This document shows, piece by piece, positions 42,872 through 60,944 of a DNA stretch of 64,000 nucleotides (its first letter is position 1; every line of letters begins with the position of its first letter). The notes beneath the pieces were generated by a model. That model worked only from the letters and a program-made list of their open reading frames with translations. It was not told the DNA's origin and did not search any database. The stretch is from Candidatus Iainarchaeum sp. (lineage in GTDB: Archaea > B1Sed10-29 > WALL01). The position numbers and the translations under genes are program-made. The stretch is taken from the NCBI GenBank assembly GCA_023129115.1, contig JAGMCR010000002.1:32001-96000 (forward strand), read 5' to 3'.

Positions 42872-42944
42872 GCCTCGGTAGCTCAGCCGGTAGAGCGGCA
42901 GTCTCGTAAACTGCAGGTCGGGGGTTCAATTCCCTCCCGAGGCT
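42872..42944 (+). tRNA. tRNA-Thr(CGT)
   Basis: Acceptor GCCTCGG/CCGAGGC, anticodon arm GCAGT-CTCGTAA-ACTGC, T arm GGGGG-TTCAATT-CCCTC, discriminator U; TTTAAATA upstream. Confidence 0.97.
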
Positions 42945-43060
42945 CTGACCCTACGGTAGTAGAGCCTGCACCATAAAATTGTTGATGATTGCCTATAACG
43001 CTTTCGTTGCAGCCCTAACTCCTTGAATTTCCTAGGAAATCCGCGGAAACTGGAGGACGC

Positions 43061-44820: not shown

Positions 44821-45453
44821 TTGAAGAAAATTAGTGTATCTGAACTGACTTTTGCGCAAATACGCGCAGCCTCCAAAGAGTTCAGAAAGCGCGAGGAGAG
44901 GGATTCAATATACAAAATCACTACAAAGCTCGTGAACGAGGCATGGGCCAAGAAAGGCAAGGGATTCACTCTCGCCGATGCCATTAGCGTGCTACTACTC
45001 GTTTGGAACCAGGGGTTCTACCGCTACGGAAGACTCAACTTCACTAAGTTCGATAAAGCTATCAAGAAGAACAAGCCACTACTGGCAAAGTTTAGGAAGC
45101 GAAAAATCGCAAGCTTCACAGCAAAGGATGAAACAACAATCAAGAAGCTATTCAACGATTTACTTGAGGCCACGTCCATCAAAACGAGGAAACAGAAGAA
45201 AAAGATGGTCAGCCCAGTCAGCGTTGCCAAAGCACTCCACATGATGGCTCCCAGATTCTTCCCGTTATGGGACGGAGCCATCGCCGTTGGATGGGGCTGT
45301 CGATTCAACCGGGACAACGCTGCTGACAAGTACCTGAAGTTCATGAGGCAAAACAAGGAACTGATGGGAAAATACAGTGGCCGCGGGCTAACCTTAAAAA
45401 TGATTGATGAATGTAGTTACGCAATATACACCGCGGGATGGTATCCACGATAG
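44821..45453 (+). CDS. Hypothetical basic protein, possibly nucleic-acid modifying
   Basis: LLVWN...SVAKALHMMAPRFFPLWD motif; its 3' end is duplicated at 52323. Confidence 0.6.
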   Translation: MKKISVSELTFAQIRAASKEFRKREERDSIYKITTKLVNEAWAKKGKGFTLADAISVLLLVWNQGFYRYGRLNFTKFDKAIKKNKPLLAKFRKRKIASFTAKDETTIKKLFNDLLEATSIKTRKQKKKMVSPVSVAKALHMMAPRFFPLWDGAIAVGWGCRFNRDNAADKYLKFMRQNKELMGKYSGRGLTLKMIDECSYAIYTAGWYPR

Positions 45454-45611
45454 ACAGGTCATTTCCTAGGAACTTCCGCGGAAATGAGGTGTGTGAGGGG
45501 CAAAAACCCGTGTAGGCTCTACAGCCGTACGACTTGTTCCCTCCCGAGGCTCTGTATCTCTGGTGCCAGAGCGCAAGCTAAATCATTCTTTTTTTTGTGC
45601 ACTTGCCTTTG

Positions 45612-46259: not shown

Positions 46260-46284
46260 GGGGTTCAATTCCCTCCCGAGGCTC
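46260..46284 (+). repeat. Longest tRNA-Thr 3' copy (25 bp, att-like), directly upstream of the integrase
   Basis: GGGGTTCAATTCCCTCCCGAGGCTC identical to 42921-42945. Confidence 0.95.
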
Positions 46285-46359: not shown

Positions 46360-47529
46360 ATGAGGACTGACCCTTACAACACCGGCACGAAGCTAGTGAA
46401 TTGCCTTGAGCGGGTTAGGCAATCGCTTGACCTATGTAAAGCCAACAAGCGGCTGATTCTTGAGTTCCACGCCGAGGCCGTTGCCCGTGGCTTGTCGGAA
46501 AAGCGGTGCCTTAAGTACGTGAGTACTCTCCGCAACCTCGGAACCCAACTTGGAAAGCCCTTTAACAAGGCGGACAAGCACGACATCATTCGCTTGCTCT
46601 CTTGGCTTGAGTCAACCGCGTACAAGGAGTGGACGAAGCACGACTACAAAGTCATTCTGAAATCGTTTTACAAGTGGCTGAACGGTGGAGAAGAGTATCC
46701 AAAGGTTGTTTCGTGGGTAAAAACAGGGATGAAGAACGGCAACCACATGCTGCCCGAGGAATTGCTGACCGAGGAAGACGTGCGTGCTTTAGTTGAAGCG
46801 TGTACGAACCCGCGCGACAAAGCTTTTGTCCTCACGTTGTACGAGAGTGGCTGCCGAATAAGCGAGCTGCTGACGTTGCAGGTAAAGAGCGTGAGGTTTG
46901 ACGAGCACGGCTCAATCTTGCGAGTGACTGGGAAGACCGGTGACAGGCGCGTGAGGGTGATTTCCGCGGCTCCGGCAATCGCGTTGTGGCTCGACAACCA
47001 CCCCACAAGGAAAGGGCACTTGTTTTGCTCCTTGGATGGGACGGGCATCAACTACTCGACCGCTAACGTGCTGTTAAGGAGGCTTGCTAAGAAGGCAGGC
47101 ATTACGAAGCGTGTTAATCCGCACGGTTTCCGCCACGCCCGGGCCACGTCGCTCGCGAACAAGCTCACAGAAGCCCAAATGAAGGAGTTCTTTGGTTGGG
47201 CTCAAAGTAGCGAGATGGCGGCTGTGTACGTCCACTTGTTGGGGCGGGACGTGGACGATGCCCTGCTAAGCATTTACGGCGTGAAGCCACCCGAGGACGC
47301 TCGCAAGGAGCGTTTCGTGCCTAGGGCTTGTCCCAGGTGCAAGGAGACTAATTCTCCTGCTAGTAAATACTGTTGCAGGTGTGGCAGTGCGCTCGACCTC
47401 GCAACAGCGCTAGAGGCTGATGACAAGCACAAGGAAGCCGATGCATTGATGAACGAGCTCATCAAAGACGACAGGATAAAAGCGCTTCTATTGGAGCGGT
47501 TGGTTGCCATCCAAGCAGAGAATCATTAA
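46360..47529 (+). CDS. Tyrosine recombinase/integrase with C-terminal Zn ribbon (SNJ2-like archaeal family)
   Basis: ESGCRISE (R), GKTG (K), HGFRH (HxxR), FGW, VYVH (Y), CPRC...CCRC; catalytic set intact. Confidence 0.95.
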   Translation: MRTDPYNTGTKLVNCLERVRQSLDLCKANKRLILEFHAEAVARGLSEKRCLKYVSTLRNLGTQLGKPFNKADKHDIIRLLSWLESTAYKEWTKHDYKVILKSFYKWLNGGEEYPKVVSWVKTGMKNGNHMLPEELLTEEDVRALVEACTNPRDKAFVLTLYESGCRISELLTLQVKSVRFDEHGSILRVTGKTGDRRVRVISAAPAIALWLDNHPTRKGHLFCSLDGTGINYSTANVLLRRLAKKAGITKRVNPHGFRHARATSLANKLTEAQMKEFFGWAQSSEMAAVYVHLLGRDVDDALLSIYGVKPPEDARKERFVPRACPRCKETNSPASKYCCRCGSALDLATALEADDKHKEADALMNELIKDDRIKALLLERLVAIQAENH

Positions 47530-52260: not shown

Positions 52261-52322
52261 AACAACAAATGACTCAGTTCTAAAATAAAAACCTTTTTAT
52301 CCCTCTTAGAGTTATGTGCAAA

Positions 52323-52495
52323 GCCGTGGGCTAACCTTAAAAATGGTTGATGAGTGTAGTTACGCAGTATACACCGCGGGATGGTATCCATGATAGACAG
52401 GTCATTTCCTAGGAAGTTCCGCGGAAATGAGGTGTGTGAGGGGCAAAAAGCGGTGCAGGCTCTATAGCCGTACGAGCTGTTCCCTCCCGAGGCTC
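52323..52495 (+). repeat. 173-bp duplicate of 45380-45552 (ORF tail, right end and core)
   Basis: Ungapped alignment with scattered substitutions. Confidence 0.95.
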
Positions 52496-52649
52496 AGCGT
52501 CCTGGGGGGCGCAGCCCCCCACGAAGCCCATGACGTTGACACAAGTCAACGTCCAGTCCACGGGAAGAGTCCCCTCAGTAATACTGTACTAGCTGCTGCC
52601 GGGCGGCCTTGCGCCGCCCTCGTCTAACGTGCCGCCTGAGTTTCAGGCG
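52496..52649 (+). repeat. Structured non-coding element, full copy (ORF-less cassette)
   Basis: Hairpins GGGGGC-GCA-GCCCCC, GACGTTGAC-ACAA-GTCAACGTC, GGGCGGC-CTTGC-GCCGCCC and CGCCTGA-GTT-TCAGGCG, between two cores. Confidence 0.9.
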
Positions 52650-52661
52650 CTCCCGAGGCTC

Positions 52662-52831
52662 AGCGTCCTGGGGGGCGCAGCCCCCCACTACCCCGGGAAG
52701 CGCCCCCCCAGGTGAGTGGGTAAGAGCTCGCTTCCGCTCGCGGTTTTTGTCTCTGGGAATCGCAGATTCCCAAGCCTAACGTGCTGTACCGTGAATCCCA
52801 ACGGATTTGCGGTTGTCCTGAGTTTCAGGCG
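52662..52831 (+). repeat. Structured non-coding element, variant copy
   Basis: Same AGCGTCCTGGGGGGCGCAGCCCCCC start, CTAACGTGC motif and CCTGAGTTTCAGGCG end; different internal hairpins. Confidence 0.88.
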
Positions 52832-53101
52832 CTCCCGAGGCTCTGACCCTACGGTAGCAGAGCCCGCTTCACCCCAAGCATGAGGCCGGACTTGCGCATA
52901 AGCTTCCTAGGGGTTTGTGGGGTTTGGGCCAATAAATTTATCAGGTTGTGGCATTCCTCGCTGAAGTATTGTCCCGCTGTCACTAAAAAACCCGTCCATT
53001 CCCTACAATAACGCTTAAAATATTGCCGTGGGGCGCATTCAGTCACGTTTATAAACTATAACATGTTAGATATATCGGTACCGATATTAAAAGGTTTTGT
53101 T

Positions 53102-53599
53102 ATGAACTTGTTTGCTAGGGGCTTGCTGAAAATTTATGTCTTGTACATGGCCAAACAGGGTTCCATTTCAGGCAGTGATGTTGCCAAGAGCATAAGCGCT
53201 GCCACAGACGGGCGGTGGAAGCCGAGCTTTGGCTCGATTTACCCGCTGCTGGGGAGGTTTGAGGAAGATGGCCTGCTGTGCCAGGAGGCTAGGAAGGGAA
53301 AGCAGGTCTTTTACTCACTCACCAAGAAGGGTGTGAAAGAGTTCGAGAGGCAGAGGGAAAAATACATTGCCGAGTACGAGGACAACCTCGGGACGCTGTT
53401 CCCCCTGGTCTTCCAGCTGGCGCAGTTCGAGGCCGACAAAGAGCTGCAAGACGCCGTCACGAACCTGAACCAAGTGTTCGCGAAATACAAGAAATACTTG
53501 TTCAACCTGGAGCTAAACGAAAAAGTGGAGAAAAGAAAGCGCATAATCAAGGACTTGTCCGCCACCCTTTCGGACCACATGAGCAAGCTGGAGAAGTGA
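53102..53599 (+). CDS. PadR-family transcriptional regulator
   Basis: WKPSFGSIYPLL...KQVFYSLTKKG. Confidence 0.9.
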   Translation: MNLFARGLLKIYVLYMAKQGSISGSDVAKSISAATDGRWKPSFGSIYPLLGRFEEDGLLCQEARKGKQVFYSLTKKGVKEFERQREKYIAEYEDNLGTLFPLVFQLAQFEADKELQDAVTNLNQVFAKYKKYLFNLELNEKVEKRKRIIKDLSATLSDHMSKLEK

Positions 53600-53603
53600 T
53601 GTT

Positions 53604-54926
53604 ATGGAAAAATACGACGCAATTGTTGTGGGGTGTGGCATAAGCGGGCTGCTCGCGGGCCTTGCGCTTGCCAAGGAAGGAAAGAGTGTGCTAATGCTCG
53701 AGAAGGAAGACAAAGTTGGTGGCGCGTGCAGGTCTTACGACGTTGACGGCTTCGTGGTCGACACCGGGCCGCATGTGATTACTGGGCGGGGGAATGGGCC
53801 AACCCAATTGCTGATAGACAAGTATTTTGACGTGGTGCCGAAGTTCATTGAGAGCAGAAAATATTTCCTGCGGTTTGACGGCAAGTTATACGCTTTCCCT
53901 TGGACGATTCCGGCTTGGCTATCGTTCCCACCGTTCTCAGTCGAAGACAGGCTCATCATTGTCCAGGTGATGTTCAAGTTGTTGGCAGACTATGCCTCTG
54001 GCAAAGGCTTGGGGGATAAAGTGGTGTCTGATTACACGGCGGGCCATGAGCTCTCGGGAAGGGCGCTGCAGTTCATTGATTGCATGTGCCTGTTTTTGAC
54101 GGGCGTTTGCATGGAGGAAACGCCCGTGAGCCGAATCCTTTCCGGGGGAAGGAGCAAAAACAAGACAAAAGCGGAAAAAATAAAAGAGATTTTGGTTGAA
54201 AACGGGAAGACCCATTACTATCCGCGTGGGGGGATCCAAACTATTGTTAACTCTGTATTGCAGTCCCTCCCGAAGAACGCCGGGATTCACAAGAGCGAAG
54301 AAGCAACCAAAATCGTGGTCAGTGGCGGGCGTGTTTCTGGTGTCGCCACGGACAAAGGCGAGTACGCCACGAAGGTAGTGGTTTACGCTGGACCGAACAA
54401 GCTCCTTCCCGGCTTGGTGGAACTGCCCCAAGAGTACATCCAAAAATTCAGGGGCTTGAAGCAAGCGAGGACGCTGACGCTGTGGCTCGGGCTAAATAAA
54501 AAATACTTCGCAGAAGTTGGGACAGAGCTTTGGACCGAAACAAAAAAGCCTTGCTGGGCCGTCCCAACATCCAATTTTGATTCTGCACTCGCCCCGACGG
54601 GGAAGCACTTGGTGGGCTTCGGCTTCGTGCTCGCGGAAGATGAGCAGGTGACCGACGACAACATTGACGACTATGTCAAAGTAGTCGAGGAAGTGTTCCC
54701 GGGCATAAGGGAACACATCGAGATGACCCATTACCAAGTGCTGGTTGCCGAGCAGGCAGCCAACGCAAAAGACAATTTCTTCAGCGGGGTCAAGCTGCCG
54801 GTCGATGGGCTGTACGCGGTCGGCACTGACGTCGACAGGCGGAGCATGGGCGTGACGAGGGCCGCGTACTCCGTAGTCTCGTTGATTGAAGCCCTAAAAC
54901 AAGGCGGTTTTGTTACGAAGGTGTGA
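53604..54926 (+). CDS. Phytoene-dehydrogenase-family FAD oxidoreductase
   Basis: GCGISG, VGGAC, VDTGPH, YPRGGIQ, LAPTGKHL, GLYAVG. Confidence 0.88.
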   Translation: MEKYDAIVVGCGISGLLAGLALAKEGKSVLMLEKEDKVGGACRSYDVDGFVVDTGPHVITGRGNGPTQLLIDKYFDVVPKFIESRKYFLRFDGKLYAFPWTIPAWLSFPPFSVEDRLIIVQVMFKLLADYASGKGLGDKVVSDYTAGHELSGRALQFIDCMCLFLTGVCMEETPVSRILSGGRSKNKTKAEKIKEILVENGKTHYYPRGGIQTIVNSVLQSLPKNAGIHKSEEATKIVVSGGRVSGVATDKGEYATKVVVYAGPNKLLPGLVELPQEYIQKFRGLKQARTLTLWLGLNKKYFAEVGTELWTETKKPCWAVPTSNFDSALAPTGKHLVGFGFVLAEDEQVTDDNIDDYVKVVEEVFPGIREHIEMTHYQVLVAEQAANAKDNFFSGVKLPVDGLYAVGTDVDRRSMGVTRAAYSVVSLIEALKQGGFVTKV

Positions 54927-54930
54927 AAAA

Positions 54931-56028
54931 ATGAAGTACAAAAAAATAGTTTTCCCGCGGGACGGTGCCGCCCATGACAACGTTATTGAGTGGTGGTACT
55001 TTAACGGGCACCTGAAGGACGGGAATGGCAATGGGTATGCCTTCATGGACTGCCTGTTCAAGGCAAAGCCCAAAGAAGTGAAACTTCCTTTTTTGAAAAA
55101 GATTCCACTCAAAAACGCTTATTTCGCCCACTCCCTTTTGTCTGACATCAAGGACAACGTGTTTTATTCAAGCGTGCAGCCCCTGAGCATACTCTCGAGG
55201 GACAGCTTTTCAAAGCCCTTGTTTTTCGTGAATTACTCCCACCCCTCTTTGGGCGGCTACCTGAATTACGAAATCGAGGAGATTGACGGGTTCAAGTATA
55301 GAATCAAGTCCGAGTTCTTTGACTTGACCTTGAGCTCGACCAAGAAGCCGCTGCTTGAGGGCGGGCGCGGGTTCATTGACTTGAATTCAAAGCAAACGTT
55401 TTACTACTCGCTGACAAACCTCGAGACAGAGGGATACGTCACTGTCAACGGCAAGCGAATCAAGGTAAAAGGCAAGTCCTGGATGGACCACCAGTGGGCC
55501 GACGTCCCGTACTCGAAGGACAAGTGGAGCTGGTTTTCAATCCAATTGGACAACAACACGGAAATGGTTTGCTTTGAGTATGGCGACAAGAAAAAGAAGA
55601 CTTATCTCGCGAGCATTTCGTACGCGAACGGAAGGGTCGCCCACGCCAGTGACTTATCACTAACCCCATTAGGCCAGGTATGGGAGAGCAAGAGAACTGG
55701 CGCCAAGTATCCCCTTTCATGGAGGATTCAAGTCCCGTCAAAAAGAATTGACCTCGTGGTGAGCCCCTTAATGAAAGAACAGGAAATAATTTTTGGGCCA
55801 ATCAACTACTGGGAGGGGCCGTTAAAAGTAACGGGAAAAGTGAACAACAAAAAAGTGGCTGGAAAAGGATTTTCAGAGCTTGTCGGCTACCCGACAACAA
55901 AGTCTTTTGTTGAGTTTTATGAGCCAGAACTAAGGAAAATCGAGAAAATAGTTAAAAGAGACTTAAGCGAATGGGTGGGTCATACGATTAGTGGAAAGCC
56001 GGGGTTTGCCGCGGATCGCAGGAAGTGA
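54931..56028 (+). CDS. CrtC/AttH lipocalin-like hydratase family protein
   Basis: H...IEWWYFNGHL, YYSLT, WMDHQW, WSWFSIQL, YWEG. Confidence 0.85.
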   Translation: MKYKKIVFPRDGAAHDNVIEWWYFNGHLKDGNGNGYAFMDCLFKAKPKEVKLPFLKKIPLKNAYFAHSLLSDIKDNVFYSSVQPLSILSRDSFSKPLFFVNYSHPSLGGYLNYEIEEIDGFKYRIKSEFFDLTLSSTKKPLLEGGRGFIDLNSKQTFYYSLTNLETEGYVTVNGKRIKVKGKSWMDHQWADVPYSKDKWSWFSIQLDNNTEMVCFEYGDKKKKTYLASISYANGRVAHASDLSLTPLGQVWESKRTGAKYPLSWRIQVPSKRIDLVVSPLMKEQEIIFGPINYWEGPLKVTGKVNNKKVAGKGFSELVGYPTTKSFVEFYEPELRKIEKIVKRDLSEWVGHTISGKPGFAADRRK

Positions 56029-56034
56029 GGTTGT

Positions 56035-56868
56035 TTGGGCTTTGGTGGTTTCTTGCTTCACTTGCGGCCGCTGTCGTGGCCACTTGTCGCACTGCAAGTC
56101 TTGACGGGGTTCGTGCTCGCCGGCGGCAACACTGTCTCTCTTGAGGTCTTGTTAGGTTTCTTTGTCATCGTTGTCTGTATGAACGGGGGAACACTGGCGT
56201 TCAACTCTTACTTCGACAGGGACGGTGGAAATGTGGGGTGGCTGGACAACCCACCCAAAACAACTAAGCAAACATATTACTTGTCGCTCGCGCTGATGGT
56301 ATTTGGTGTGCTCGCCGCCTTGCTGGTGTCCCATGAATTTTTCTATTTGGCTTCCGCATCTTTCGTTGTTAGCGTTGCTTATTCACATCCTTGGTTCAGG
56401 CTCAAGTCGGTGCCACTGGCAGACGCCATTTGTAGTGGCGTGGGTTACGGGGTGCTCATGTTTCTTGGGGGTTGGGTACTCGCGTCACCAGTCTTGACTG
56501 CCAAGGCCGGGGTCGTGTGCGTGGGAATGTTCCTGGCGTTCATGGCTGGGGTTCCATTGACCCAAATATATCAAATGCGTGAAGACAAAAAGAGGGGTGA
56601 TAGGACCACTGCATTGGCCTTGGGACCGGACAAATCAAAGTGGATGTTTTACTTCTTTGGCACGCTTTCTGTAGCCGTGTTGTTGTTTGCTGTTATGGAG
56701 GGGTTCTTGGGGAAACTTGCGCTACTGGCGGGCGTGCCTTTATTCTGGCTGGCGTTACAAGTACGGAACATCAAATCATTCAAGCACAAGCAAAAAGTTT
56801 ATGAGGCATACGTCGTGGTTGTTGTTGTGGATGTGGTTATCATTCTTTCAGAACTCGTTCCAGTGTAA
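56035..56868 (+). CDS. UbiA-family prenyltransferase
   Basis: LRP, FNSYFDRD, YSHPWFRLK, EDKKRGDRT. Confidence 0.88.
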   Translation: MGFGGFLLHLRPLSWPLVALQVLTGFVLAGGNTVSLEVLLGFFVIVVCMNGGTLAFNSYFDRDGGNVGWLDNPPKTTKQTYYLSLALMVFGVLAALLVSHEFFYLASASFVVSVAYSHPWFRLKSVPLADAICSGVGYGVLMFLGGWVLASPVLTAKAGVVCVGMFLAFMAGVPLTQIYQMREDKKRGDRTTALALGPDKSKWMFYFFGTLSVAVLLFAVMEGFLGKLALLAGVPLFWLALQVRNIKSFKHKQKVYEAYVVVVVVDVVIILSELVPV

Positions 56869-57002
56869 CACACCCCCTTTCCGCGGAAGCTTCCCCGGAA
56901 ATGACTTGGGTGTGGCTGATTTTGGGCGCAGGCTCTAGAGCCATACGAGCTGTTCTCCCCCGAGCTCTTTTATACTTCTTTTGACTAAAATTGTTTACTC
57001 TT

Positions 57003-58058
57003 ATGCATACACAAGAGCTTGTCACACGGCTTGAGGATGCGGAGAAAGCCGTTTCTGGGTACGGGGGGCAAAGGCTGTTGCTAATCAGCCAGTACTACGG
57101 CGCCCAAATGGATTTCGTCGATAGGATAGAGGCGGGCGTTGAGAGGGGCAAGAGGCTGATGAGTGCGGACATTGTTGTCAGAAGAAAGCATGCCATGAGC
57201 CAGCAGAAGATTTTCAAGAGGATGGCGCAGTTTTTCAAGCAAGTCGATGGCTCATACAAAAAAGGGGACATCAAGGACAAGGAGGGCCGTGTGTTCGCCC
57301 GCGCCTATGACAAGGCGGTCCACGGCCATTTTGCCAAGGTACGGGAGATTCTTTCAGAGGTAGAGGGCATGGCCGTGGTATACACGGAATTTGTTGGGCT
57401 TGAGGAAGAAGCAAAAAGGCAAAAGAAAAAGTTGGGGAAAAGGAAGGCGTCCATCCATGCATTGCTCGAGGAAGCGGGCTCGGTAAAGCCGCTTGATGGC
57501 GATTACGTGAAAAAGCATGGGGAAGTGCTTCGGAGCCTGGAGAAAGCCAAGGGGCTTAGGGCGGAGTACATACAAAAAATTCGTGGCAAGAGTGTTATGG
57601 AGTACGTGGCAATGCTGAAAAACAAGGATTTGGTCAAGGTGGGCTTTCCAGGCGCGGACCCTGCTGACATCACCAAATTCTTGAATGCTTATCCAGAGCT
57701 CTCAAAGGCAACGCCGGAGAAACTGCTTGAATATCGTTCCTGGACAGACGGGAAGCTAAAGCACACAATCCCGGAGACCAAGAGGTTCAGGAGCATGATG
57801 CAGGAGTATGGCTCTTGGCTGGAACGCCTTGAGCACCTTGAGTCATTGGGGTTCATGGTTGTTAGGAACGTGGAGGACGCGAAGAGGCTCGCGCCATTAT
57901 TCAGGGGGACCGAGGCCGGTGGCGTGCTGTCAAGCCTTAGCGGGCTTGGGGATTACTGGATGGCGCCCCCCAAAGGCGCACCAGTCAGGGACACACCAAA
58001 GCTAAAAAAAGAGCTTTCCGAGATAGGCAGGGAACTGGCGCTTCTGGAAGGCGTTTAG
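57003..58058 (+). CDS. Hypothetical helical protein (single-gene cassette)
   Basis: ORF fills the interval between cores at 56954 and 58066. Confidence 0.7.
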   Translation: MHTQELVTRLEDAEKAVSGYGGQRLLLISQYYGAQMDFVDRIEAGVERGKRLMSADIVVRRKHAMSQQKIFKRMAQFFKQVDGSYKKGDIKDKEGRVFARAYDKAVHGHFAKVREILSEVEGMAVVYTEFVGLEEEAKRQKKKLGKRKASIHALLEEAGSVKPLDGDYVKKHGEVLRSLEKAKGLRAEYIQKIRGKSVMEYVAMLKNKDLVKVGFPGADPADITKFLNAYPELSKATPEKLLEYRSWTDGKLKHTIPETKRFRSMMQEYGSWLERLEHLESLGFMVVRNVEDAKRLAPLFRGTEAGGVLSSLSGLGDYWMAPPKGAPVRDTPKLKKELSEIGRELALLEGV

Positions 58059-58130
58059 GCCCAATCCCTCCCGGGGCTTTCCGGGGGAGGTGGGCAACGC
58101 AAAGCTTAAATATTAGAAATGCGTACTATA

Positions 58131-58237
58131 GGGCGCTGTAGGTTTGAGAGGTTGTGAACCGCAAGGCTTGCAACGAATTATGTCCCGAAAGTGGCATAAG
58201 GGCCGTGTAGAAAATAGCTCTTAAACCTGTAGCACTT
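58131..58237 (+). ncRNA. Putative structured small RNA (three-way junction)
   Basis: BRE/TATA-like CGCAAAGCTTAAATAT at 58098-58113; closing stem GCTGTAGGTTTGAGAG/CTCTTAAACCTGTAGC with G-U pairs; two hairpins capped by GCAA and GAAA; T-rich tract downstream. Confidence 0.65.
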
Positions 58238-58462
58238 CAGCGCTTTCTGTTGTTTCAACTGTGTATGGACCTTAGTTCTCACGCTTCATTTCCGCGGAAC
58301 TTCCTAGCCGCAGGATTTATAGCCGTACGAGCTGTTCCCTCCCGAGGCTCTCAGACCACGTCAAGGAGCCCCCGCTCAATTCCGCACCGGTTTACATGCC
58401 TGTTTATAAAGGTTTACGATATATCGTACACCTTTATATAATAGTTCAAACACCGATTAAGC

Positions 58463-59653
58463 ATGGAGCTAGGACTCTGGAAGGTTGTGGAGCAATGGAA
58501 TTACTGGAAGGAAAAGCCAGAAACCGGTATTCCCAGGGACGTGACCGCAGAGGCAATGGAGTTCTTTAAAGGCAGCGAAGCGCTTTATTTTTTTGGCCCG
58601 CGGCGAGCCGGGAAAACATTTGTTTGCATGCAGCTGCTGTCAAAGCTGTCAAAGAAGCACGGGAAGAAATCTTGCTTGTACGTGAACTTTGAGGAGCCTG
58701 CTCTTGCCGGGAACCTGCGCACGGAATTCATAGAAGAAATCGTTGTAGAATTCAAAAAAGTGCATGGGAAGTGGCCTCGCTTCGTTTTCCTTGACGAAGT
58801 CCAGAACGTTAAAGGCTGGGAGCGCTGGGTCCGCGGAGCAGTGGACAGGAAACGGTTCAAGGTTTTTGTCACTGGATCTTCTGCGAAACTCTTGAGTTCA
58901 GAGTTCTCCACTTCTCTTGGGGGGAGGGGGATAGGCTTTCTGGTATTGCCGTTTTCCTTTAGCGAGTTTAGGCGTGCAAAACCAAAAGCGGGGCTCAAGG
59001 AGTACCTTGAGATTGGGGGCTATCCAGCGGTTGTACTGGAAAAAAACGAGCGCAAGCGCAGGAGGATGCTGGAAGAGTATTTTGACACTGCCATCATGAG
59101 GGATATAGTGGCTAGGCACGACGTGAGAGACGTGCCAACATTAAGAACGCTTGCCGTTTACTTACTGACAAATTCTGGAAAGCGCTTCAGCTACAATAAG
59201 CTTCGGGCAATGACACATCTCTCTTTTGACGCGCTTAGGCAGTACCTGTCATATCTTGAGGACGCATTAGTGGTTTTCCAAGTACCGTATTTTTCGTACT
59301 CCATGAAAAAAGCGCTTGAAAAGCCCCGCAAGTACTATGCTTATGACCTTGGGCTGCAGGGAGCTGTATCAAAGTCGTTTAGTCCGGACTGGGGAAGAAA
59401 AGCCGAGAACGCGGTTGCAATAGAGCTGGTTCGGCGAAGAAAAGAAATTCAATACTACTCAAACAAGTTTGAAGTCGATTTCATAATAAAAGAAGGAACA
59501 AAGATAAAGCCGGTAAATGTCTGCTACTCAGAGAAACCACCGCAAAGGGAAACAAAAAGCCTTGAAGAGTTTTCCAAAAAACACAAGTCAGAACCCCCTC
59601 TGTTGCTTTGCGGGAAGGATAACATCTTGAAGTGGCTGAAAACAAACCAATGA
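58463..59653 (+). CDS. AAA+ ATPase (AAA_14 + DUF4143 type)
   Basis: GPRRAGKT, FLDEVQ, VTGSS, GGYP, KYYAYDLG, EVDF. Confidence 0.92.
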   Translation: MELGLWKVVEQWNYWKEKPETGIPRDVTAEAMEFFKGSEALYFFGPRRAGKTFVCMQLLSKLSKKHGKKSCLYVNFEEPALAGNLRTEFIEEIVVEFKKVHGKWPRFVFLDEVQNVKGWERWVRGAVDRKRFKVFVTGSSAKLLSSEFSTSLGGRGIGFLVLPFSFSEFRRAKPKAGLKEYLEIGGYPAVVLEKNERKRRRMLEEYFDTAIMRDIVARHDVRDVPTLRTLAVYLLTNSGKRFSYNKLRAMTHLSFDALRQYLSYLEDALVVFQVPYFSYSMKKALEKPRKYYAYDLGLQGAVSKSFSPDWGRKAENAVAIELVRRRKEIQYYSNKFEVDFIIKEGTKIKPVNVCYSEKPPQRETKSLEEFSKKHKSEPPLLLCGKDNILKWLKTNQ

Positions 59654-60607: not shown

Positions 60608-60646
60608 TGGGCTCCAAGAAGTGAATCCCTCCCAAGGCTCCATCTC

Positions 60647-60837
60647 AGCGTCCTTAGGGGGAGCGCAGCTCCCCCTGGCCCAGACGAACAACAACCGAAC
60701 ATCCTGTGGGGGATGTCCGGTATCCTGCGGGATGTACGTCATACCCTGGGAAGCCTCACCCCCTCAGTAATCCTGTACTAATCTGTCTCTTGGGGCCTTG
60801 TGCCCCAAAGCCTAACGTGCCAGCTGAGTTTCAGCTG
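60647..60837 (+). repeat. Structured non-coding element, third full copy
   Basis: AGCGTCC...GGGGGAGC-GCA-GCTCCCCC...CCCTCAGTAATCCTGTACTA...TTGGGGC-CTTGT-GCCCCAA...CTAACGTGC CAGCTGA-GTT-TCAGCTG. Confidence 0.88.
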
Positions 60838-60944
60838 AATCCCTCCCGAGGCTCTCATTCTATGGTAGTAGAGCCTGCGCCAAAGTGTCTTGCAAGTTGA
60901 TTAGCAGCAAAAGCCTGACACAATTTTCCGAGCTTGGAACACTT

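Follow-up and report, generated by a model that had tools for sequence, protein, structure and literature searches.

Lying between two attachment (att) cores of a mobile island in a Candidatus Iainarchaeum sp. genome is a unit of 271 bases in which nothing is recognizable besides the gene of a structured small RNA. The unit was analysed within a stretch of 64,000 nucleotides (the window; contig JAGMCR010000002.1, here C12:32001–96000 of genome G000), part of a 1.25-Mb assembly of 19 contigs that is 88.6% complete; G numbers denote genomes, C numbers the contigs of G000, which is the window genome, and L numbers excerpted loci. The RNA truly belongs to a new family of structured RNAs, conserved and, as far as sequence comparison can tell, missing from Rfam, and it forms part of the cargo of a tRNA island in an archaeon. 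The unit is likely to be an intact, independently transcribed small-RNA gene of this unlisted family, gained as mobile cargo of the island. The host genome is archaeal and of the DPANN type, and the genomes of its relatives measure 0.3–1.3 Mb. An earlier note, made from the letters of the window, had described the unit as a cassette whose only cargo is a promoter-driven structured small RNA.

The two cores bounding the unit occupy 58065–58078 (a G variant that exactly matches the 3′ end of the tRNA-Thr(TGT) gene of contig C4) and 58336–58349 (an A variant, after which comes the ‘C-type’ arm of the adjoining module, with its AAA_14/DUF4143 ATPase at 58463–59653), both on the plus strand and one base off the 58066 and 58337 first given. 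The longest reading frame of the unit is a TTG frame of 63 amino acids that crosses the right core, the others comprising 34, 31, 26, 23 and 20 amino acids, and the claim that the unit holds no credible open reading frame (ORF) stands. Placed ahead of the RNA is a B recognition element (BRE)/TATA promoter, aaagcTTAAATAT (aaagc TTAAATAT; 58101–58113, plus strand), a strong archaeal box that fits the tRNA promoters of the genome; as had been proposed, it sits at the right distance, its TATA box beginning 29 nt ahead of G58135, where the stem starts. After the RNA comes ‘ACU’ and a U-rich tail (58234–58256, plus strand), the presumed transcript end, where termination would take place; the T-rich tract seen earlier corresponds to 58243–58256, with a longest T run of three.

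The 11-mer AAGCTTAAATA occurs five times in the genome, where its printed flanks look intergenic and promoter-like and an ATG follows 30–31 nt on in two cases. A BLAST search of the unit against its own genome returned only the promoter 19-mer and pieces of the arms. The 19-mer recurs identically at C7:44474, ahead of a 14-codon frame and with a hairpin and a T5 run ~95 nt on (C7:44474–44600; L005:1501–1630); this twin, which may be a second small transcript or a micro-ORF, gave no Rfam match and a weak fold (z-score of −1.09).

The structured RNA itself spans 99 nt (58135–58233, plus strand), as delimited by folds, covariance-model matches and covariation; a stem-closed sequence had been recognized correctly, its length of ~107 nt wrongly. 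Closing it is the 16-bp helix P1 (58135–58150 with 58218–58233), within which are P2 (58151–58174, GCAA loop at 58161–58164), P3 (58178–58199, GAAA loop at 58187–58190) and P4 (58203–58206 with 58214–58217, loop at 58207–58213), all on the plus strand. The long closing stem and the two GNRA-capped hairpins are those of the earlier fold, whereas its three-way junction with a free 18-nt strand gives way to a four-way junction: in relatives, the strand taken to be unpaired (58200–58217) forms a 3-nt joint and a 4-bp hairpin with a 7-nt loop. A target search with this strand was uninformative, the best complements in the genome carrying three mismatches (four sites).

On the plus strand, the 99-nt sequence folds with a minimum free energy of −35.8 kcal/mol (z-score of −4.18, reached by 0 of 200 shuffles), compared with −22.0 kcal/mol on the minus strand (z-score of −1.33, reached by 20 of 200), and by sequence reading there are six G-U pairs versus one A-C mismatch; the signals of RNA-level selection lie, as suggested, on the plus strand only. 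The three-way fold first drawn has −34.2 kcal/mol, 1.6 kcal/mol above the minimum, a rod-like alternative. Hairpins capped by C(GNRA)G with at least 8 of 9 pairs number 40 on both strands of the genome (35–53 in Markov controls); an adjacent pair of them, such as the two reported here, occurs in the 1.25 Mb only at the RNA locus, and in none of six Markov controls. Owing to the plus-strand z-score and this unique pair, we regard the structured sequence as real rather than a product of chance.

Relatives of the RNA were found with three successive covariance models. The first, built from the window copy alone with the earlier fold and run over 151 genomes of relatives under stricter filters, gave full-length matches in G146 (56 bits) and G083 (55.2 bits) at E-values of ~1e-10, which are rough, as are all those of the covariance searches. 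The second, from these three sequences, added G205, G203 and G166; the third, from six sequences and with the fourth helix included, added tandem pairs in G104 and G125. The homologue search proposed in the earlier note has thereby yielded structurally conserved relatives in seven other genomes, and the family amounts to 10 copies in 8 genomes, with a pairwise identity between lineages of 34–75%. It is present in 7 of the 17 genomes of a second small-genome archaeal phylum, where it would be at home. In the phylum of the window genome it is present in 1 of 31, the window genome itself, by both the single-sequence and the six-sequence model; the former found none in the class's 30 other genomes, the class being the whole phylum as sampled. 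The six-sequence model gave no credible match in the other 134 genomes searched, a match in G137 (24.9 bits) having been dropped as lying inside a 343-amino-acid ORF in AT-rich DNA. As many of the searched genomes are 60–90% complete (72–98% for the 17 of the second phylum), a missing match does not amount to absence.

Searches aimed elsewhere returned no further copies. The single-sequence model matched none of 38 integrase-related loci, the six-sequence model none of 41 loci and the three-sequence model none of five genomes reached via integrase loci. In 60 relatives, BLAST of the unit turned up only short matches, due to chance or to the promoter; two exact patterns were absent from viral contigs, a structure-shaped pattern and an arm-plus-core pattern each had zero hits in metagenome contigs, a phage collection gave none, and a plasmid collection gave chance matches only (E-value of 0.6).

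Judged from the aligned copies, the consensus is a four-way junction. The P2 cap is GNRA in six copies and UUCG in the four of G104 and G125; the P3 cap is GAAA, or CAAA in G166; between P3 and P4 is a purine joint of ~3 nt; and the 4 bp of P4 enclose a conserved loop of 7 nt, K-U-A-n-A-m-m. Standard pairs fill 94.6% of the cells in the six-sequence alignment (77.3% when shuffled), in which 27 of 37 pairs have changed on both sides; the corresponding figures for ten sequences are 91.4% (75.2%) and 30 of 37, and in neither alignment did any of 500 shuffles reach either value. Partners slid by 1–3 columns were paired in 36–42% of cells, and compensatory changes occur in all helices. Two points weigh against taking these counts at face value: the alignments used for pair counting were fitted to the covariance model, and four rows of the ten-sequence set are two near-identical pairs (93–94%), which among only 10 copies inflates the cell counts. 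An alignment by MAFFT folded with RNAalifold, which was not fitted to the model, recovered P1 and P2, and 17 of its 27 pairs are compensatory. The P3 GAAA cap, the P4 loop and the purine joint are conserved, while P2 tolerates either a GNRA or a UUCG cap, which probably places the recognition surface at the P3/P4 side of the junction.

The anatomy of the gene is conserved along with the fold. A TATA-like box lies 28–31 nt before the first G at all eight loci, and ‘ACU’ followed by a U-rich stretch comes directly after P1 in all eight terminal copies; the tandem copies of G104 (L092:6076–6286) and G125 (L093:6059–6269) are 11 nt apart and share a single promoter. In G083, G166, G104 and G125, the RNA and the gene downstream are convergent, the RNA of G083 is divergent from a second ATPase gene, and the downstream ATPase gene of G205 has a TATA-like box of its own. 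Its own promoter, its tail and these orientations argue for a free-standing small RNA gene rather than a leader. The description of a promoter-driven structured RNA is borne out by the same promoter spacing, tail and compensatory changes in the seven other genomes, from which we infer transcription; the transcript would be ~100–105 nt long, starting ~28–31 nt after the TATA box and ending with ‘ACU’ and the U-rich tract. A second sample of the same study contains 57868–58227 unchanged. Weighing on the other side is that none of the RNA runs searched holds the stretch.

With Rfam 15 at the gathering threshold, the window gave only tRNAs. At an E-value of up to 10, the best match to the unit was the LOOT RNA (RF03000), at 17.9 bits against a gathering threshold of 46.4; one GAAA-capped hairpin aligns well, and membership was rejected because in the alignment many pairs are broken and the promoter has to serve as a helix. 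That search also returned none of the known ribozyme families, and five homologous loci had no matches at an E-value of up to 1, in keeping with the earlier remark that the family was not a recognizable one. A diverged signal recognition particle RNA and a diverged 5S rRNA were likewise rejected, the window genome having a canonical copy of the former (C5:7366–7633, 102.9 bits) and all five RNA-bearing genomes tested a canonical 5S rRNA. Literature searches, with bioRxiv supplements outside their scope, found no description of the RNA.

The island in which the unit lies is anchored on a tRNA-Thr(CGT) gene (42872–42945, plus strand; Rfam tRNA 70.7 bits, also called by ARAGORN), whose last 14 bases are the core, TCCCTCCCGRGGCT. 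Allowing up to two mismatches, the window has 13 plus-strand copies of this core, where 0.96 would be expected. From the tRNA gene the cores, 15 in all, continue to C12:103054 and bound 14 modules over 28 kb (window 42872–64000 and on to C12:103067), and the last core is followed by the host gene guaA. Located 90 nt after the core at 46270 is a Xer-like tyrosine recombinase, the integrase (46360–47529, plus strand; Pfam Phage_integrase, E-value of 5e-24), which has NCBIfam XerA_Arch as its best model (131 bits, under the cut-off of 220) and is 84% identical to one from ‘Candidatus Iainarchaeum’; 38 related integrase loci were found, several of them adjoining tRNA genes. A tyrosine recombinase, direct repeats of a tRNA 3′ end and an intact tRNA gene, the features expected of a tRNA-targeting island, are all present, and the integrase would build the island by repeated recombination at the tRNA-Thr 3′ end. 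Arms next to the cores come in matched families (A…X twice, B…Y three times and C…Z three times), which fits discrete elements each with its own attP arms. A look for the empty site was limited by distance, guaA of relatives being 45–48% identical and having no tRNA nearby, and the contig joints at the island fall within repeated arms, with sides of only 21–33 letters.

Among the cargo of the island modules are an isochorismatase, a subtilase, a TFIIB-like gene, an EEP nuclease, an S9 peptidase, a PadR/FAD-oxidase/CrtC-like/UbiA/DUF7118 set and the AAA_14–DUF4143 ATPase; an AbiEi/AbiEii toxin–antitoxin pair lies in one module beyond the window (L068:3017–4257; C12:97016–98256). Several modules are only 166–271 bp long and gene-free, and no replication module was seen in the island. 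Three of the gene-free modules, of 166–214 bp (52481–52829 and 60626–60840), start with CAGCGTCC and end with CTGAGTTTCAG; this hairpin-rich element has 14 starts and 24 ends genome-wide (for example, at C2:19480, C4:7050, C5:68952 and C13:82233), many of the starts directly following the last base of a tRNA and some of the ends abutting a tRNA 5′ end. The palindromes TTCCGCGGAA (six of seven genome copies) and TTCCTAGGAA (four of four) are found almost only in the two arrays with tRNA-Thr cores, usually paired, at 43029, 45463–45483, 52406–52426, 56879, 58290, C12:96081 and C13:143502–143532, and are candidate arm-type binding sites. The second array (C13:142781–143621, minus strand) combines an A-type arm and a palindrome pair with two tRNA-Thr cores, and ARAGORN calls no tRNA there.

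How the RNA gene came to lie between its two cores bears on the description of it as the only cargo of a cassette. That part which concerns the bounds and content of the unit stands, there being two att cores with nothing else recognizable between them; beside it must be set a second possibility, held tentatively, that the RNA gene is real and forms the right-hand tail of a 5.5-kb module (52829–58336; PadR, FAD oxidase, CrtC-like, UbiA, DUF7118 and the RNA), the core at 58065 being an internal relic or secondary site. The grounds for it lie in the arms. To the right of the RNA is a decayed ‘X-type’ arm (58277–58335, plus strand) containing TTCCGCGGAA and a truncated TTCCTAGG palindrome, and because this arm belongs to the X family and the left-hand module has none, the RNA gene may form the end of that module: the unit 52829–58065 has an A arm without an X arm, and the RNA unit an X arm without an A arm. 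The other X arms (those at 45538 and 52481; 45350–45537 and 52295–52480) share ~190 nt at ~92% identity and likewise hold a TATA-like box, CCTTAAAAAT, facing the core, from which transcription in the circular form would read across attP into the module genes. As RNA genes they were rejected, their plus-strand folds being no better than shuffles (z-scores of −1.06 and −0.51).

A separate insertion of the RNA unit is favoured by the left core, which equals the tRNA-Thr 3′ end at 14 of 14 bases (chance of ~5e-4 per window) and together with an inverted copy makes a textbook recombinase-type site. The hairpin of this core and its inverted partial copy (58060–58094, plus strand; arms of ~9–10 bp around GGCTTT) lies directly 3′ of the stop codon of the DUF7118 gene and folds at −20.9 kcal/mol, with a z-score of only −1.4. 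The G and A variants of the flanking cores also fit separate insertion, and the X arm of the RNA unit is inverted and shortened relative to those at 45538 and 52481. DUF7118 was rejected as a partner protein of the RNA, as it occurs in only two of 200 other genomes, neither of them G083 or G146, the RNA-bearing relatives known when the count was made, and in no viral contig. The remainder of the left-hand module (53063–56868) codes for PadR, an FAD amine-oxidase-type desaturase, a CrtC-like two-lipocalin protein and a UbiA prenyltransferase, a set that we take to resemble the haloarchaeal genes for C50 carotenoids (bacterioruberin) and that would be an odd cargo for a cold-seep DPANN archaeon.

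Whether it came in by itself, on a 271-bp module with only the RNA, or at the end of the adjacent 5.5-kb module, the window copy would have been gained by horizontal transfer from an unsampled donor, as mobile cargo. Horizontal gain is the best reading because the RNA lies in mobile DNA and is the only copy in the searched phylum, and we consider it most likely. Several points weigh against it. The case is drawn from distribution alone, and 10 of the 17 genomes of the second phylum are without a match; the window copy is 46–59% identical to each of its relatives, and a close donor was not found. Two further points weigh on the reading of the RNA family as a whole: it has only 10 copies, and because calibration was shortened the covariance E-values are rough.

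The same isolation raises the question of whether the window copy still functions. That it is a decaying passenger of a real family, no longer expressed or useful, would agree with its being the lone copy in its phylum, with no ATPase gene as a neighbour, and with three signs of wear, the first two of which also count against an intact gene: one C-A mismatch in P4, the weakest U-tail of the family, with no run above three T, and the decayed arm alongside. We think this unlikely, as its promoter perfectly matches the strong promoter type of the genome, the four helices and the two conserved loops are all intact, and its score with the six-sequence model is the highest of all (93.3 bits), though it is one of the training sequences.

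The genes around the RNA in the second phylum are ordinary housekeeping genes. Its neighbours include the glycine-cleavage P protein in G146, L11 and Spt5 in G166, and a Cbf5-like protein, RtcB and, two genes away, VIT1 in G104, with ORFs of matching size and order in G125. No integrase is found among the scanned neighbour genes of these loci and no tRNA-Thr gene nearby, the only nearby tRNA being a tRNA-Val 2 kb away in G205. In three of the seven lineages, a type-II P-type cation ATPase gene adjoins the RNA: in G146 with an HAD gene between the two, in G083 with one ATPase gene on each side together with an Na/Ca exchanger, and in G205 at 85 nt downstream. This adjacency is a hint and not a rule, because the ATPase is encoded in all 17 genomes of the phylum (one to three copies, with the RNA found or not) and is not adjacent to the RNA in G203, G166, G104 and G125; both facts speak against a link with cation transport, as does the chance that the three adjacent cases share ancestry, which they may. 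The transcript would be stable and act in trans, and that it is a regulator which binds a protein or an ion and has to do with cation transport, a link to which VIT1 in G104 also points, is a doubtful, if permissible, suggestion. More speculative, and in our judgement improbable, is that an RNA binding a cation or a cation regulator tunes P-type ATPase expression in trans and is self-sufficient enough to remain functional when it travels between phyla as an integrase-mobilised 271-bp cassette with no other content; if true, this would be an archaeal counterpart of integron cassettes trafficking RNA genes.

Metal-sensing multi-helix riboswitches, the Mn2+-responsive yybP-ykoY and the Mg2+-responsive M-box, are found upstream of P-type ATPase genes, and the present family resembles them as a compact junction RNA of ~100 nt adjoining cation-ATPase genes. 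A cis-acting leader of ATPase genes, riboswitch-like and perhaps a metal sensor, of which the window copy would be an orphaned aptamer, would suit a multi-helix junction of this size, the tandem copies of G104 and G125, and the position on the same strand upstream of the ATPase gene in G205 (85 nt) and G146 (with the HAD gene between). A 5′-leader position is, however, taken up only in G205 and arguably in G146, and not in G083, G166, G104, G125 or the window. Both the terminator-like tail straight after P1 and the orientations given above, which are convergent for the tandem copies as well and divergent in G083, make a cis riboswitch less likely, and the family, unlike yybP-ykoY and the M-box, has no match to the Rfam metal riboswitch models and is often convergent or divergent to its neighbours; we rate such a leader as quite improbable. 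That the stem-loops act as DNA, serving the mobile module as a site for recombination, replication or protein binding, would suit an array rich in palindromic arm sites and the stability of C-GAAA-G and C-GCAA-G caps in single-stranded DNA too, but is very hard to reconcile with relatives in non-mobile contexts away from any scanned integrase or nearby tRNA-Thr gene, helices kept through G-U pairs and functional on one strand only, and a conserved promoter and U-tail.

As a small-RNA gene probably gained with the island, the unit has its closest functional analogue, by comparison of layout, in the ORF-less integron cassettes that carry a small RNA or a promoter. Such cassettes can encode a regulatory RNA, for example sRNA-Xcc1 of Xanthomonas campestris (the accessible part of PMC8876359), and promoter-bearing examples are described in the accessible parts of PMC6557892 and 10.1101/2023.11.21.568050; shared with them are a short gene-free unit, an array bounded by recombination sites, and promoter and/or small RNA content. 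The island differs in its recombinase, which scores far under the cut-off for the integron integrase IntI (TIGR02249; 46.8 bits versus 265), in boundaries that are copies of a tRNA 3′ end, in modules that carry their own promoters and in its archaeal host. The boundaries are direct 14-nt copies of a tRNA end, flanked by arms that fall into three or more unrelated families, and were not taken for attC, a judgement made with no attC model run. Because there is no IntI and there are no attC hairpin sites, identity as an integron was rejected. The cassette arrays reported from archaeal genomes, small-genome lineages included, appear in the accessible part of that report (10.1101/2022.02.06.479319) to have been detected through attC, unlike the window array with its tRNA-derived cores and Xer-like integrase.

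For the island, the nearest counterparts are the tycheposons of Prochlorococcus, tRNA-anchored islands with tyrosine recombinases (10.1101/2020.12.28.424599), which, as far as the accessible text goes, likewise have an integrase beside a tRNA gene and partial tRNA copies flanking stacked cargo, with newer insertions pushing older ones along; the tandem integrative elements of archaea, as the accessible part of PMC8371274 presents them, are similar tRNA-anchored islands. Unlike tycheposons, the island packs 14 modules into 28 kb, several of them gene-free at 166–271 bp and one with an RNA gene, and belongs to a DPANN lineage.

To our knowledge, few structured RNAs beyond the universal ones have been described from DPANN archaea, and these archaea cannot yet be grown alone. 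With its four-helix fold, strong covariation, clear gene anatomy and the hint of a cation pump, the RNA offers enough for synthesis and in vitro probing. The window copy presents an RNA gene as cargo in a tRNA-anchored stack of mobile modules and points to the transfer of a non-coding gene between archaeal phyla; cargo of this kind would be missed by gene-centred surveys of mobile elements.

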